Shown: one piece after another, positions 58,983 to 64,000 of the stretch | Position numbering within the stretch: position 1 is the first letter of the stretch | How the letters are laid out: every line of letters starts with the position of its first letter | Source of the DNA: an uncultured Acidobacteriota bacterium | Lineage (GTDB): Bacteria; Acidobacteriota; Terriglobia; UBA7540; JAPUME01 | DNA: 64,000 nt | Assembly (NCBI GenBank): GCA_964605715.1 | Contig: CAZSDV010000002.1 | Span: 167-64,166, forward strand | Reading direction: 5' to 3' | Notes under the pieces: generated by a model | Databases searched by the model: none | The model's input: only the letters and a program-made list of their open reading frames with translations | Told to the model about the DNA's origin: nothing | Made by a program: the position numbers and the translations under genes

Positions 58983-60938
58983 ATGGCTGAACCTCTTTGG
59001 CGTCCCTCGGAGTCTCGTGTGCGCAAGGCAAACCTGACAGCATTTACACGGGTGGCCGAGAAAGAGTGGGGGAAAAAATTTCCAAACTTTAAATCCCTAT
59101 ACCGTTGGTCGATTGAGGATCCTGAGGAGTTCTGGGTGTCCCTCTGGAATTTCTGCGACGTCGTTGCTAGCCGGAAGTGGGATAGGGTTCTGGCCGACGC
59201 AGATCGGATGCCAGGCTCAAAATGGTTTGAAGGAGCAAGACTGAACTTTGCTGAAAACCTCCTTCGGCGTCGGGACCAGCAGCCAGCCCTAATTTTCCGC
59301 TCGGAGAGAGGTGAGCGTCGCGAAATTTCCTACGCGCAACTTTATAACGACACAGCCCGACTGGCGCATTCCTTAAAGAGCCTTGGTGTCACCCAGGGAG
59401 ACCGCGTAGTGGGCTTTCTCCCTAATATTCCAGAAACTATAATCGCCATGTTAGCAACGACTGCGCTTGGCGCCATATGGTCCAGCTGCTCGCCTGAGTT
59501 TGGCCTGCAGGGGGCACTTGACCGCTTCGGACAGATTACTCCGAAGGTCCTTTTTACCGCTGAGGGATATGCCTATAACGGCAAGGCCATTGATTCGCTG
59601 AAACGCGTGGGTGGCATGGCGCGTAAAATTCCGACGCTAAAGAACGTGGTGGTGATTCCATATCTGGAAACCAGCCCATCAATAAGTGAGATTCCTAACG
59701 CGATTTCCTGGCGAGAATTGGTGAGTGGAGAAGCAGTAGAGTTGCAATTTGAACAATTTCCGTTCAGCCATCCTGCCTATATTTTATATTCATCGGGTAC
59801 AACAGGAGCTCCTAAGTGCATTGTTCACGGTGGGGGTGGAGCGCTACTCCAACACCTTAAAGAACACCGTCTTCACGCTGACCTCAAAGTGGGAGAGCGG
59901 ATATTTTATTTCACAACGTGCGGCTGGATGATGTGGAACTGGATGGTAAGTGCGCTTGCTAGCGAAGCCACTATAATCCTATATGAGGGATCGCCAATGT
60001 TTCCAACACCTCAGGTGCTTTTCGATATTGCTGCTGAAGAACAGATAAATGTTTTTGGAACTAGTGCCGGATATCTGTCAGCTATTCAAAAAGCCAGGCT
60101 TGAACTACATCGCACTCACGACCTTTCGGCCCTGAAAGCAATATTATCCACCGGCTCACCTCTTGCTCCACGAACTTTTGATTACGTTTATGAGAAGATT
60201 AAAGCAGACTTGCAATTGGCTTCAATCAGCGGCGGCACCGACATCGTAGCCTCCTTTGCTGGAGGCAATCCTACCGGAGCAGTATACCGCGGCGAACTTC
60301 AGACTCGGACACTGGGAATGAAAGTAGAGATCTTTAACGAAAAAGGACAATCAATTCGAGGACAGAAAGGGGAGCTAGTTTGCACGGCCCCGTTTCCTTC
60401 CATACCAGTAGGATTCTGGGACGATGCAGGAGAGAAGAAATTCAGGGCTGCCTACTTTGAACATTACCCCAATGTGTGGAGGCACGGTGACTACGCCGAG
60501 CTTACGGAGCACGATGGTATGATCATCTACGGGCGCTCTGATGCAGTACTCAACCCGCATGGGGTTCGTATCGGGACAGCGGAAATTTACCGGCAAGTGG
60601 ATGAATTGGATGAAGTGTTAGAAGGCCTTGTCGTTGGGCAGGAATGGGAGGGGGATGTGCGAATTGTCCTTTTCGTTCTCTTGCGTCCGGGACTAATCCT
60701 AGATGAAAGATTGAGCCAAAAAATTAATGATCAGATTCGTATCAATGCCTCGCTTCGACACGTTCCGGCCAAGGTAATTCAGGTCCCTGACATTCCCCGA
60801 ACGCAAAGCGGTAAGATTGTTGAACTTGCAGTCCGGGAGGTGATCCATAACCGCCCCATTGATAATCAAGTGAAGGCCGCACTCGCCAACCCTCAGGCAC
60901 TAGAATTTTTTAAGGATCTAAAAGAGCTTAAAGATTAG
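58983..60938 (+). CDS. acetoacetate--CoA ligase (acetoacetyl-CoA synthetase)
   Basis: 651 aa. N-terminal LWRPSE...FTRV pattern of acetoacetyl-CoA synthetases. AMP-binding YSSGTTGAPK. C-terminal PRTQSGKIVE. Confidence 0.85.
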   Translation: MAEPLWRPSESRVRKANLTAFTRVAEKEWGKKFPNFKSLYRWSIEDPEEFWVSLWNFCDVVASRKWDRVLADADRMPGSKWFEGARLNFAENLLRRRDQQPALIFRSERGERREISYAQLYNDTARLAHSLKSLGVTQGDRVVGFLPNIPETIIAMLATTALGAIWSSCSPEFGLQGALDRFGQITPKVLFTAEGYAYNGKAIDSLKRVGGMARKIPTLKNVVVIPYLETSPSISEIPNAISWRELVSGEAVELQFEQFPFSHPAYILYSSGTTGAPKCIVHGGGGALLQHLKEHRLHADLKVGERIFYFTTCGWMMWNWMVSALASEATIILYEGSPMFPTPQVLFDIAAEEQINVFGTSAGYLSAIQKARLELHRTHDLSALKAILSTGSPLAPRTFDYVYEKIKADLQLASISGGTDIVASFAGGNPTGAVYRGELQTRTLGMKVEIFNEKGQSIRGQKGELVCTAPFPSIPVGFWDDAGEKKFRAAYFEHYPNVWRHGDYAELTEHDGMIIYGRSDAVLNPHGVRIGTAEIYRQVDELDEVLEGLVVGQEWEGDVRIVLFVLLRPGLILDERLSQKINDQIRINASLRHVPAKVIQVPDIPRTQSGKIVELAVREVIHNRPIDNQVKAALANPQALEFFKDLKELKD

Positions 60939-61017
60939 AAAAACCTAACAAATAAGGTAGTTATTTGCCAAGTTGACGTGCGGAAGACTGCAAACGAATA
61001 GGTCCTGTCTCGTTCAT

Positions 61018-61221
61018 CTAGAGGCGTTCCACATTCTCCGCCTGCAGACCTTTGGGCCCCTTGGTGACCTCAAAGCTTACGCTCTCCCCTTCTTGAAGAG
61101 AACGGTAGCCTTCACCTTGAATGGCCGAAAAATGAACAAAAACGTCGTCCCCATTTTCGCGGCCGATAAACCCATAACCTTTAGAGGCATTAAACCACTT
61201 AACAGTTCCTTGTTCCTTCAT
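61018..61221 (-). CDS. cold-shock protein (CspA family), second paralog
   Basis: 67 aa. KGYGFI and VFVHFSAI. About 75% amino-acid identity to the 43516 copy by eye, with many synonymous DNA differences. Confidence 0.95.
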
Positions 61222-61242
61222 GCCCTAGCATTCCTTTTTCCA

Positions 61243-61504
61243 ATTTGGCAATTCGTATTAAGGTTGCAGGCATTCACCGGACGACCCGCTGTAATACCGC
61301 AGGTCACAAAAGGGAGGAGCAATAGAAGGAACTACTCTTAAATCTGATGTGATGCTCATCGGAATTACAACAACAAACTGCAGGCGCATTATAACACAAC
61401 TATTTTATGGGGGAGTGAGGAAACTCTATGAGTAACTTAACAATGCTGATGAAGGCATTAAGATATCATAATTCTTTTTCTAGCTAACTAGGTCTGGTTG
61501 ACAA
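61243..61504. repeat. 262-bp perfect inverted repeat, copy B (csp promoter plus 5' leader)
   Basis: Reverse complement of 43232-43493 with no mismatch seen by eye. Confidence 0.9.
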
Positions 61505-61672
61505 CCTAGTTCTGCTTGGATAATTGCCCTCGCTGCATTTATCAGGTTTTGGACTGCAAGATGGAGTTATACCGGTAGATGTCATTTAGGAGAAGCAGTA
61601 AGCTCGCCATGGGTTGCATTCGAGCAAAACATGAGTAATCATCGGTGCAGTTAGACACTCGGAGGAAAACAC

Positions 61673-61990
61673 ATGGGTTGCTCAACGCCAAATATACCGA
61701 GTCCTCCTGCCCCAGGGCAGCGGGTGGTCAAATGCGTCAAATTCCAGAAAGAACTTCCAGGACTGGACGCACCCCCCTGGCCAGGAGAGTTAGGTAAGCG
61801 GCTCTTCGAAAACGTATCTGCTCAAGCCTGGGACTTATGGAAAGAACACGCCAAGATGGTGCTAAACGAATATCGAATAGCTCCTTGGACCAAAGAAGGG
61901 AGGGAGATGATTCAGGACCAACTGGAGAAATTTTTCTTCGGCGAAGGTGCTGCGCTTCCTCCAGGTTATGTTCCTCAGCAAGCTAAATAG
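61673..61990 (+). CDS. yggX: oxidative damage protection protein / Fe(2+)-trafficking protein (YggX family)
   Basis: Homology block VKCVKFQKELPGLDAPPWPGELGKRLFENVSAQAWDLWKEHAKMVLNEYR mirrors E. coli YggX. The true start may lie downstream of the listed ATG. Confidence 0.8.
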   Translation: MGCSTPNIPSPPAPGQRVVKCVKFQKELPGLDAPPWPGELGKRLFENVSAQAWDLWKEHAKMVLNEYRIAPWTKEGREMIQDQLEKFFFGEGAALPPGYVPQQAK

Positions 61991-62073
61991 TAAGACCAAA
62001 TAGTTGACGTACATAAACTGACCGCTTTCCTCACAACCGTATTGGGTGGGTTGTTTGTTCTGAGGAAAAAAGT

Positions 62074-63375
62074 TCACACTATAGGCAAGGTAGGGCTTAT
62101 TCGAAATCGGAGTTTTTCTTGCGCTCTACGGAGATGCCTTTCAACCTCTGTCGGTGAGCCAGCCTGGGCAAAGATAAAACCTAGGTAGCTCGCACCTTCA
62201 GGAAGAGGAACTAGCCGCTGCTGGGTTTTCGCAGTAATGCGGATCTCCTTGATCCCTGTGGCTTGGCATGCTTCCTCCTCACCTTCTACCCCTTCATAAA
62301 ACCCTTCACGAGGAATCGGGATCATCATTACTCCAGAAGCGGTGCTCACTCGGCTAACTTTTGATATGTCCTCACCAAGACCCTGTCGGATTATCAACTC
62401 TTCAAGTGAAAGTTGTTGCATTTCCCGCTCGAAGAGAAGCGAGCGAGCGCAAAGCCCTCCAATTGAACGGGCTGCCACTTCAAGGATCCAAACTCCCTCC
62501 TCATTCAACCTTACCTCAGCATGGAGAGGACCATGCGATATGCCTATCTTCTCTGATGCTTCCTGGACAGCCTGGATAATTCTTTGCTGAGAATCCTGCG
62601 GGAGCCTTGAAGGGGTGACGTATAGAGTTTCTTCGAAATAGGGACCCTGGAGCGAGTCGGGCTTATCAAATAGTGCCAGAACTTTCAGCTTGCCTTGTGT
62701 GACCATTCCTTCTAGGGCATATTCGGAACCAGGAATAAACTTTTCCACTTGAAGAAACCGGCTTGTCTCCTCACCTAGTACCTGCACACTTGGCGATAGA
62801 AGCAGCGATCTAATCCTGTTAAAGGATTCCACGAATTCACGACTGCTATTAGCTCGAATCACTCCGCGGCTGCCCGATAGTGCTAGAGGCTTAAGTACGC
62901 ATGGAAACTCAACTTGAGAGGTAAGGCTGCCAGGATTCTCATCTATAGAAAATCTTCGAAAGGATGGGATCTTGAGGCCTGCAGATTTGAGCCGCACGCG
63001 AGCTTGGTATTTATCCCGACAAACCTCTACCGCGTCAGGAGAATTGTATGTCAAGCCTAGCTGGCGACATGCATGTGCAGCGGTAACCGTGGCCCGGTCA
63101 CCAAGGGCTACCACCGCGTCAACGGGGTAGCTTCGTGCATACTCAATAATAGCTTGAGCGGATTCACAGGGATTCTCAAATCGCAGAGCAAGAGCACCAT
63201 CCCGCCACGGATCGTCAAGCTTCCAGCAGCGGTCTGAACCAAAGGCCACCCTGAGATCTAACTTTTCTGCCGCCTCGACAAAAGCACGAGTCTGGTACCC
63301 CGTGGTGGTACACAAAAGAAGTAATCTCTTCTGTCGTATTTTTTGTGTGGCATGTTGAGGAATCTTAGAGTGCAT
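62074..63375 (-). CDS. ATP-grasp domain protein (carboxylate-amine ligase-like)
   Basis: 433 aa. Pre-ATP-grasp N-domain, VLKPLALSGSRGV, EKFIPGSEYALEG, and HAEVRLNEEGVWILEVAARSIGG, which is typical of ATP-grasp_4-type ligases. Substrate unknown. Confidence 0.8.
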   Translation of the reverse strand: MHSKIPQHATQKIRQKRLLLLCTTTGYQTRAFVEAAEKLDLRVAFGSDRCWKLDDPWRDGALALRFENPCESAQAIIEYARSYPVDAVVALGDRATVTAAHACRQLGLTYNSPDAVEVCRDKYQARVRLKSAGLKIPSFRRFSIDENPGSLTSQVEFPCVLKPLALSGSRGVIRANSSREFVESFNRIRSLLLSPSVQVLGEETSRFLQVEKFIPGSEYALEGMVTQGKLKVLALFDKPDSLQGPYFEETLYVTPSRLPQDSQQRIIQAVQEASEKIGISHGPLHAEVRLNEEGVWILEVAARSIGGLCARSLLFEREMQQLSLEELIIRQGLGEDISKVSRVSTASGVMMIPIPREGFYEGVEGEEEACQATGIKEIRITAKTQQRLVPLPEGASYLGFIFAQAGSPTEVERHLRRAQEKLRFRISPTLPIV

Positions 63376-63416
63376 CGTGTTGGCAAGATTCTTGCCTGCC
63401 CCCTGCTATCGCACAT

Positions 63417-64000
63417 TCAGAAAAGAGCAACCTGCTCTTCGGTAGGCTCAGCTCAGCAATACCAAGGTTCATCCATATATGGAATCGCCGCCCGAGACAA
63501 CGGCACCTGTGACACGCAAGGTTCACGAAGATTTTCCTCGGTGCCATCATTAGTACGGTTCCAAATTGCACTGAAAATTTCCCGCCGACTTGAGTTCCTT
63601 GCCTTCCCTTCCTTGATCAGCTTCAAAACATCAGCTTGCAAACTCTCTACTTGCGATTCAGAATTTTTCCAGCGGTAGCTAAGAGCTACTGAATCAAATC
63701 CCTCCAAAATACTTAATGTCTCCGAAAATTCAAGTAGCTTTGAGCCAGCTGGAATTAAGAGTCGGATAGCTAATTGAATAGGCGCAACATTTTCCACCAG
63801 GTCAAGTTCTAGTAAATCGTTAAGAAGCTTTTGATAATCTTCACGCGAGGTCCAAGGGGTGAACGGCACGAAAGTGGGCGCCAAGATAAGGTCCGCCTGC
63901 CGGAACCGGCGGACCACTTCAAAAAAATCATCACGCGTATGATTTTTTGCCAGCAGCCTGAGGGTGTGGTCATCAACTGACTCAACCGCGCTCGTAACAA
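63417..64000 (-). CDS. radical SAM protein, C-terminal part, predicted selenoprotein with CUAEP tail (gene runs off the right window edge)
   Basis: The frame is open from the window edge: ...VTSAVESVDDHTLRLLAKNHTRDDFFEVVRRFRQADLILAPTFVPFTPWT..., a radical-SAM-like C-terminal half. The ORF track stops at TGA 63455-63453 after ...PYMDEPWYC. Read-through gives C-U-A-E-P-TEEQVALF and then a TGA at 63419-63417. A SECIS-like hairpin follows the first TGA. Confidence 0.65.
63422..63440 (-). promoter_or_regulatory. candidate bacterial SECIS hairpin
   Basis: The mRNA reads UGA GCUGAGCCUACC GAAGAGC-AGGUU-GCUCUUU. This is a 7-bp stem (one G-U pair) starting 13 nt after the UGA. Counting the U of UGA as +1, the apical-loop GGU falls at +24 to +26, comparable to G23/U24 of the E. 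coli fdhF SECIS. Confidence 0.5.

Follow-up and report, generated by a model that had tools for sequence, protein, structure and literature searches.

A CUAEP-tail radical-SAM selenoprotein gene and its conserved neighbours, an L-amino-acid-ligase-type ATP-grasp gene and yggX, in Acidobacteriota

Genes at the locus

We examined the end of a 64,000-nt stretch of contig CAZSDV010000002.1 (the window), from an uncultured Acidobacteriota bacterium. Three genes lie together there. The first encodes a radical S-adenosylmethionine (SAM) selenoprotein and is cut by the window edge, leaving the C-terminal 193 codons and the stop (63417..64000, minus strand). The second encodes a 433-residue ATP-grasp enzyme of the L-amino-acid ligase (LAL) type (62074..63375, minus strand), and the third, convergent with it, a 105-residue YggX-family protein of iron trafficking and oxidative-damage protection (61673..61990, plus strand). 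An earlier reading of the letters alone (the sequence-only reading) had singled out the first two genes as a unit that continues beyond 64000 and of which only the tail end is visible. Neither point held: a marine metagenome contig identical to the window over their shared part (L001, ENA ERZ909419) shows that the radical-SAM gene runs on past the edge for only ~840 nt, and the module is small, its third member yggX lying within the window just downstream of the pair. Beyond the start of the radical-SAM gene, L001 carries a thioredoxin-like (DsbH) gene; it is present in the closest relatives only, and was rejected as a member.

The radical-SAM protein, completed from L001, has about 473 residues including selenocysteine (Sec). 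Against NF040546, the model for "CUAEP/CCAEP-tail radical SAM (seleno)protein", the full protein scores 596.4 bits (cutoff 500) and the window fragment alone 175 bits over model positions 277-457. The reading frame enters from beyond 64000, passes through ...IPYMDEPWYC to a TGA at 63453-63455, goes on as AEPTEEQVALF as far as a second TGA (63417-63419); the protein thus has the C-U/C-A-E-P tail motif, with Sec from an in-frame UGA, that defines NF040546. The CX3CX2C cluster motif, which falls past the window edge, reads C-LHL-C-RH-C in L001 and in database entry P0121 and is invariant in 59 orthologues; the only other invariant Cys or Sec residues in these are C284 (in the context G-C-x-F-V-x-S-A-V-E), C467 and U/C468. 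Pfam recognizes Radical_SAM and, below threshold, a B12-binding-like N-domain, and no SPASM/twitch or RiPP recognition element (RRE) domain, RiPP being a ribosomally synthesized and post-translationally modified peptide; a sequence search of PDB gave no match. The AlphaFold2 model (pLDDT 75) predicts a Rossmann-like N-domain and a radical-SAM barrel, in a fold like those of AprD4, TsrM, MgmA, MiaB and OxsB. Confidence is low for its last ~30 residues, so the C-terminal arm is probably flexible.

The in-frame UGA (63453..63455, minus strand; the U of ...PWYC-U-AEP) aligns with TGC or TGT in orthologues. Directly following the conserved ...EPW[YF]C, 71 orthologous loci have TGA in 49 cases and TGC/TGT in 22, and a second, more distant sample has 67 TGA against about 10 genuine Cys codons; Sec is used in roughly 70-85% of family members, and A-E-P is kept in frame after the codon in both the Sec and the Cys forms. 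A stem-loop resembling the bacterial selenocysteine insertion sequence (SECIS) starts 13 nt after the UGA (GAAGAGC-AGGUU-GCUCUUU, 63422..63440, minus strand; 7-bp stem, present in the centroid fold). It recurs in 43 distinct Sec-type orthologue sequences with other stems, such as GCGGGC/GCCUGC and GGGACC/GGUCCC, the loop being AGGUU or AGUU. In the alignment of these 43 sequences there are 41 double-change cells, vs. 15.7 in column shuffles, a count that was reached in none of the 500 shuffles. The true stem register also outscores every slid register; the raw percentage of paired cells is lowered by the occurrence of two loop registers. Close downstream of the UGA and kept by compensatory changes, the hairpin agrees with what is expected of a bacterial SECIS element, and we call it SECIS-like. 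Because of the TGC/TGT codons in orthologues, the conserved downstream frame and the covarying hairpin, we conclude that the UGA is a real Sec codon, and the selenoprotein reading that had been made from the letters stands. A tRNA scan of the window found tRNA-Arg only, and no tRNA-Sec.

Database entries of this family (P0121-P0240) nearly all end at the Cys before the UGA, typically at 455-461 residues, indicating that gene callers truncate them systematically and lose the U-AEP tail. A cultured host of a CUAEP-tail gene is Thermomicrobium roseum DSM 5159 (megaplasmid NC_011961; L092 8935-10440), though no ligase adjoins the gene there. Its protein WP_012643191.1 stops at a TGA that is followed by in-frame AEPLEDPSGP... 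and a hairpin GGACCC-GUC-GGGUCC, so the RefSeq protein is probably truncated at a Sec codon.

All three Pfam domains found in the ATP-grasp protein score over cutoff: ATP-grasp_4 (PF13535, 113.7 bits), LAL_C2 (PF18603, 51.8) and ATPgrasp_N (PF18130, 29.6). Its NCBIfam matches are all far below cutoff, the best being the ATP-grasp half of PRK02186, followed by BacD and DdaF. Among solved structures its relatives by sequence are BL00235 (3VOT, E 8.5e-39 over the full length) and BacD (3.5e-20), with 30vh also top-ranked. The AlphaFold2 model (pLDDT 88.5) retrieves with Foldseek 3VOT, BacD and RizA at the top (E 3.6e-33, TM ~0.8), then PurT, PurK, PurD and biotin carboxylases; one exception among the top folds is 4dim, deposited as a glycinamide ribonucleotide synthetase. 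By domains, sequence and predicted fold the protein is of the L-amino-acid ligase type, and its activity is predicted on that basis. Modelling had been proposed earlier as a guide to the substrate class, and it gives a fold of the type of ligases that act on free amino acids; that the protein might cluster with a housekeeping ligase did not come about, and the LAL assignment suits the amide-bond-forming tailoring then suggested. BL00235, BacD/YwfE and RizA share with it the three-domain ATP-grasp fold with LAL_C2. It differs from them in its low identity (just 17-25%), in forming its own orthologous group, which is tight (>57% identity among the 120 best database matches), and in being partnered with a radical-SAM selenoprotein and YggX rather than placed in an antibiotic cluster.

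The YggX protein scores 114.6 bits against NF003817 (PF04362, Iron_traffic; cutoff 74), and its Cys and PGELG motifs are conserved relative to the E. coli sequence. In the window and in close relatives it has an N-terminal extension of ~15 residues starting M-G-C (MGCSTPNIPSPPAPGQR...), which is absent from E. coli-type YggX and from YggX of the Thermomicrobium-like branch.

The radical-SAM stop and the ligase ATG (at 63375) are separated by 41 nt on the same strand (63376..63416), as had been measured before. This spacer holds the GGCAAG-AAU-CUUGCC hairpin also described then, at 63382..63396 in both the minimum-free-energy and centroid folds, and a pattern scan revealed no sigma-70-like promoter or intrinsic-terminator-like site between the two genes, in line with the earlier impression of no obvious terminator. 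The whole 83-nt stretch containing the hairpin folds no better than shuffles (z -0.20); in relatives the gap between the two genes ranges from -14 to 56 nt, the spacers are unrelated and the hairpin is not conserved. It was therefore rejected as a regulatory element, carries no weight here and is assigned no function. The convergent intergenic region between ligase and yggX (61991..62073, 83 nt) contains an imperfect hairpin, which was rejected as a terminator: z is -0.15, neither strand gives a canonical intrinsic terminator, and the pattern scan was negative. An Rfam scan of 60900-64000 gave nothing relevant.

Upstream of yggX and divergent from it, across a 450-nt intergenic region (61222..61672), is a cold-shock protein gene (61018..61221, minus strand). 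The only Rfam match in this part, a weak one to the cspA thermoregulator (16 bits, E 0.38), falls within its coding sequence and is probably due to chance.

Conservation of the gene neighbourhood

Two samples of loci were compared. For the ligase-centred sample the ligase alignment was scanned against one genome per GTDB species, yielding at least 558 confirmed loci, of which the best 80 were used; almost all of these are Acidobacteriota metagenome-assembled genomes, with one from Methylomirabilota. For the radical-SAM-centred sample we ordered the results of a metagenome scan by how similar they are to the T. roseum protein and took the best 80 loci (52-63% identical to it). Nearly all loci in both samples are metagenome-assembled genomes or metagenome contigs, and the taxa represented are set by the best-80 selection. 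Co-occurrence was measured within 7-8 kb flanks, and families of open reading frames (ORFs) were clustered from ORFs of at least 75-80 residues. Counts of conserved genes within 3 kb refer to full-flank loci only, those with at least 3 kb of sequence on both sides.

In the ligase-centred sample, 48 of 59 full-flank loci have the CUAEP radical-SAM gene no more than 3 kb from the ligase gene and 50 of 59 have yggX that close; ORF clustering found the radical-SAM, ligase and YggX families to be the only ones conserved throughout. Aconitase, glucose-6-phosphate dehydrogenase, glucokinase, HAD and formyltransferase genes and a bshA/bshC-like pair were considered as members and rejected; they occur at subsets of loci, judged to reflect lineage synteny. 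In the radical-SAM-centred 80, yggX is directly upstream of the radical-SAM gene at 30 loci and an Nfu-type gene (Nfu_N + NifU) directly downstream at 12-13; DUF169 occurs at 10, and a ligase gene at 14, its product 41-52% identical to that of the window. Among the 34 full-flank loci of this sample, 23 have YggX or Nfu, nine have the ligase and nine have none of the three.

About seven gene orders were found: rSAM>LAL<yggX, as in the window; yggX>rSAM..<LAL; rSAM>LAL>yggX; LAL>NfuA>rSAM(>DUF169); rSAM>DUF169>LAL<yggX; rSAM>Nfu>(DUF169>)LAL; and LAL>rSAM>Nfu (rSAM, radical-SAM gene). The fourth is that of Methylomirabilales/NC10 contigs, retrieved by starting from the radical-SAM gene, where DUF169 sometimes comes next. 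On two long contigs (L086/L087) a divergent suf operon precedes rSAM>LAL<yggX. The lineages that hold the association are Acidobacteriota, Methylomirabilota and unassigned metagenome lineages. The main argument that these genes work together is that their association survives about seven orders, protein identities of 41-65% and the exchange of YggX for Nfu, and we consider it very likely that the three genes are functionally linked. The pair had been expected to fall apart in related genomes if it meant nothing; it is kept as neighbours in related and in distant ones, and with this conserved adjacency and no terminator pattern the Sec-containing CUAEP-tail radical-SAM and ATP-grasp genes stand as a conserved, probably co-transcribed and uncharacterized unit, as first proposed.

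The adjacency might instead be synteny inherited within one phylum, the ligase having an unrelated role. Most ligase-centred loci do come from one phylum, yggX is mostly convergent and not co-transcribed, and 11 of the 59 full-flank ligase loci have no radical-SAM gene nearby. This account is nevertheless very unlikely, given an association that outlasts the rearrangements, is kept at identities down to 41-52% and occurs in at least two phyla, the swapping of YggX for Nfu carriers, and the conservation of no other flanking gene.

The carriers that replace YggX at some loci are NfuA-like (Fe-S_biosyn + NifU) or Nfu_N + NifU proteins, and they are unrelated to it. NfuA serves LipA and MiaB, and in enterobacteria yggX is located with mutY; we know of no dedicated client of the enterobacterial protein. 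As in these cases of support, the gene beside that of a radical-SAM enzyme is here one for a small protein of iron or Fe-S trafficking. Unlike the enterobacterial one, YggX is here positionally tied to a single radical-SAM family and interchangeable with Nfu-type carriers.

At a subset of loci a DUF169 protein (PF02596; ~240 residues, several conserved cysteines) is encoded between the radical-SAM and ligase genes or after the radical-SAM gene (L003 7100-7921; L016, L019, L021, L022, L056; L085 9534-10244; ten of L095-L174). It is possibly an occasional fourth member of the module.

No transporter, resistance gene, regulator, protease, precursor peptide or short-ORF family is conserved across the ~160 loci (ORFs of at least 75 residues clustered), which extends to relatives the earlier remark that no precursor peptide, transporter or regulator is visible. 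This bears on RiPP maturation, which the sequence-only reading had offered as typical for such a pair and in which the two enzymes would act on a ribosomal precursor peptide. The genes adjoin on one strand, and radical-SAM and ATP-grasp pairs do occur in RiPP clusters. The present ligase, however, is of the BacD/BL00235/RizA type and not of the graspetide/RimK type, the radical-SAM protein has neither SPASM nor RRE, the gaps between abutting module genes are just -14 to 56 nt, and no small ORF, protease or transporter is conserved; the module is moreover single-copy and core-like, syntenic with housekeeping genes. We regard RiPP maturation as extremely unlikely.

Other neighbours were seen in particular lineages. 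The suf operon on L086/L087 (481-7262; a 72%-identical relative) is complete, with an Rrf2 regulator, SufB, SufC, SufD, SufS, an A-type carrier, NifU_N and FeS_assembly_P. In Methylomirabilota (L083 13309-16387; L088-L090 9575-12397) a GT4 glycosyltransferase gene, BshA-like by Pfam, and a BshC-domain gene are suggestive of bacillithiol synthesis; this pair either converges on the ligase-NfuA-rSAM unit or is separated from it by a few kb. A 318-residue formyltransferase-domain protein (PF00551) is encoded divergently next to yggX>rSAM at 20 loci of one radical-SAM-centred clade (including L098, L103, L106, L113, L122, L126 and L155).

Relation to ArsL and to arsenic islands

The closest characterized full-length homologue of the radical-SAM protein is ArsL. 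The ArsL model NF040542 gives 269.3 bits with residues 8-412 aligned, not reaching its cutoff of 450, and identity to the RCCLKC-tail proteins of Bacillus and Priestia plasmids is 32-33% over 89% of the length. By sequence comparison the protein is a full-length paralogue of ArsL. ArsL cleaves SAM to methylthioadenosine and a 3-amino-3-carboxypropyl (ACP) unit via an Fe-C(gamma) organometallic intermediate, and passes the ACP unit to arsenite bound by three C-terminal cysteines; tail-less ArsL yields 2-aminobutyrate only (bioRxiv 10.1101/2024.02.01.577332; 10.64898/2026.04.29.721666).

The two families have in common a Rossmann-like N-domain with a CX3CX2C radical-SAM barrel, motifs of the C-terminal half, and a vicinal Cys pair on the C-terminal tail (the CC of RCCLKC, here CC or CU). 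The tails differ otherwise, C-U/C-A-E-P being followed by 8-25 further residues, whereas RCCLKC stands at the very end of ArsL. The third conserved Cys is in the core here (C284); the RCCLKC proteins, such as that of B. cereus, have Val at that position and three Cys in the tail. Partners differ too: YggX/Nfu, LAL and DUF169 accompany the CUAEP radical-SAM gene, and the ars context (arsM, arsQ, arsR, ACR3) that is present at RCCLKC loci is conserved at none of the ~160 CUAEP loci. A tail comparable in another respect is found in thioredoxin reductase, which likewise has adjacent Cys and Sec on a flexible C-terminal extension, with Cys-Cys variants where Sec is not used. That enzyme is of another fold and class, and a redox role for the CU dyad here is only a possibility.

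Two plasmids, pAH820_272 of B. cereus and pB2.1 of Priestia, carry an RCCLKC-tail gene of the ArsL family together with genes for an aquaporin and a CobW-type GTPase; the B. cereus locus is part of an arsenic island and also holds arsR, an ACR3-family arsB, arsC, arsD and arsA. At 3.3 kb from the RCCLKC-tail gene there is a CMD > ATP-grasp > ArsR unit (L093 1148-2976; L094 3339-5151), with the ATP-grasp gene co-directional with arsR. The plasmid ATP-grasp protein has the same LAL architecture as that of the window and is 23% identical to it (E 1e-16). This second, independent pairing suggests that radical-SAM enzymes of the ACP-transferring kind recurrently have LAL-type ligases as partners. 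The arsenic-linked amino-acid ligase of the CMD/LAL/arsR unit does not seem to have been described.

The CUAEP module might then itself act in metalloid metabolism, with ArsL-type formation of a C-As (or C-Sb, C-Se, C-Te) bond on a metalloid held by C284, C467 and U/C468, and with the ligase turning the arsinothricin-like amino acid so formed into a peptide. The radical-SAM enzyme comes from a family sister to ArsL and has a vicinal CC/CU pair, LAL-type ATP-grasp genes stand by RCCLKC-tail genes in the Bacillus and Priestia arsenic islands, and CU motifs have been noted in Hg- and organometal-handling proteins (bioRxiv 10.1101/2022.07.06.499078). Yet none of arsR, ACR3, arsM, arsC, arsN and aquaporin, seen at RCCLKC loci, is conserved at the ~160 CUAEP loci, and no exporter or self-resistance gene is found at the module, which has core metabolic genes around it and is very widespread in Acidobacteriota (at least 558 species matches); the arsinothricin cluster, by contrast, is reported to be narrow in distribution (PMC8552651). 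The absence of ars genes makes arsenic unlikely as the acceptor, and we judge metalloid metabolism improbable.

Proposed chemistry and significance

The module is probably a small intracellular biosynthetic unit of three, sometimes four, genes: yggX or Nfu, the L-amino-acid ligase, the CUAEP radical-SAM gene and, in some genomes, DUF169. Its product is likely to be a small molecule derived from amino acids rather than a RiPP, and the lack of a conserved transporter or resistance gene argues that this product is intracellular.

As to how the product would be made, we tentatively favour ArsL-like chemistry followed by ligation. The radical-SAM enzyme would reductively cleave the C-gamma-S bond of SAM, giving methylthioadenosine and an ACP group at or near the [4Fe-4S] cluster, as ArsL does; it is the homology to ArsL that leads us to propose ACP generation. 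A soft nucleophile held by the family-invariant Cys284, Cys467 and Sec468, the last two on the flexible C-terminal arm, would capture the ACP group to give a gamma-substituted 2-aminobutyrate, a methionine-like amino acid. The predominance of Sec at position 468 points to a nucleophile or redox centre rather than a passive ligand. Sulfur or selenium species are candidate acceptors, and so is the tail of the enzyme itself, which may act as a covalent relay. The ligase would then activate a carboxylate as the acyl phosphate and join the ACP-derived amino acid to a second amino acid, forming an intracellular dipeptide. BL00235 makes Met-Gly and Met-Met (PMC6920838); that this nearest characterized relative prefers methionine, which is S-methyl-ACP, supports a gamma-substituted 2-aminobutyrate as substrate. 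YggX or Nfu would supply Fe(II) or clusters, keeping an oxygen-sensitive or turnover-damaged radical-SAM cluster loaded. The analysis establishes which genes are present, the Sec codon, their conserved linkage, the class of the ligase and the relationship to ArsL; the ACP-type cleavage of SAM, the role of the triad and the order of the steps we infer.

Several observations weigh against this proposal. A similarity of ~33% to ArsL is no guarantee that NF040546 enzymes cleave SAM in the same way, and the three tail cysteines of ArsL, with Val at the C284 position, mean that the acceptor site differs. Where an Nfu carrier is dedicated to a radical-SAM enzyme, the better-known cases are enzymes that give up a cluster for sulfur insertion. 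Linkage is also asymmetric. The radical-SAM gene is often with YggX/Nfu alone or solitary, in the Thermomicrobium-like branch the ligase is near it at only nine of 34 full-flank loci, and the T. roseum gene has an aminotransferase and a major facilitator superfamily transporter next to it, with no adjacent ligase. Several Bryobacteraceae loci have ligase and YggX with no radical-SAM gene within 4-8 kb, so that the ligase step is either not obligatorily coupled or has its partner encoded elsewhere. Finally, yggX is at most loci convergent with the ligase gene and not co-transcribed.

The main rival is sulfur or selenium insertion, in which a 5'-deoxyadenosyl radical would serve to insert sulfur into a substrate built, or later ligated, by the ligase; an auxiliary cluster, or a persulfide on the Cys/Cys/Sec triad, would be consumed and rebuilt by Nfu/YggX, in the way that NfuA serves LipA and MiaB. 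This rival accounts for the Nfu/YggX link better than the ArsL-like model, since these carriers are near the radical-SAM gene at 23 of 34 full-flank loci, the NC10 order is ligase > NfuA-like > rSAM and a suf operon adjoins the module on L086/L087. With its three further invariant Cys/Sec residues the enzyme has possible ligands for a cluster or a possible site for a persulfide, and MiaB is among the closest solved folds to the predicted structure. Sulfur insertion fits the homology worse, ArsL and not a methylthiotransferase being the closest full-length relative and MiaB family models giving 24-28 bits only, and we know of no precedent for Sec as a ligand to an Fe-S cluster. Removal of the equivalent Cys tail from ArsL left its Fe/S content unchanged (bioRxiv 10.1101/2024.02.01.577332). 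Taken together, sulfur insertion seems unlikely.

The same carriers may be read as a sign of cofactor or protein modification, either an ACP-type change of a residue followed by ATP-grasp amidation, as in diphthamide, or NifB-like processing in which Nfu/YggX would deliver the clusters and DUF169 would serve as the scaffold. The tight link to Fe-S carriers, the lack of a transporter, the frequent occurrence of the radical-SAM gene with YggX only and the recurrence of a cysteine-containing DUF169 protein as fourth gene would all agree with this. The ligase, on the other hand, has the complete LAL architecture for free amino acids, including LAL_C2, and no candidate target is conserved beyond YggX and Nfu, which are not related to each other. 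We hold such modification to be quite unlikely.

The NF040546 family is catalogued and uncharacterized. Its sole mention in the literature that we found is one sentence, naming it as uncharacterized (bioRxiv 10.1101/2022.07.06.499078), and we found no publication that connects the family with an ATP-grasp ligase, YggX, Nfu or DUF169. The parts of the module are of known kinds; what is new is their combination, the Sec-bearing acceptor arm and the iron-trafficking partner. In its fullest form ArsL-like chemistry would be a noncanonical radical-SAM reaction of a second kind, with the selenolate/thiolate triad capturing ACP, and would have the ligase build from it a new intracellular dipeptide-like metabolite or cofactor tied to iron/Fe-S homeostasis, a core trait of Acidobacteriota and Methylomirabilota; so complete a picture is doubtful.

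That most database entries of the family are truncated before Sec is an annotation issue. To our knowledge, ArsL is so far the only radical-SAM enzyme of canonical fold that cuts SAM on the "wrong" side; a large and mostly Sec-using sister family would show whether this chemistry is general, and what else gets built with it. Through its fixed link with YggX/Nfu the family also provides a concrete candidate client of YggX, a protein whose molecular role is still under debate. The module occurs in hundreds of Acidobacteriota species, which belong to the most abundant bacteria of soil, as well as in the methane-oxidizing NC10 phylum; its product could be a widespread yet unrecognized metabolite or cofactor.

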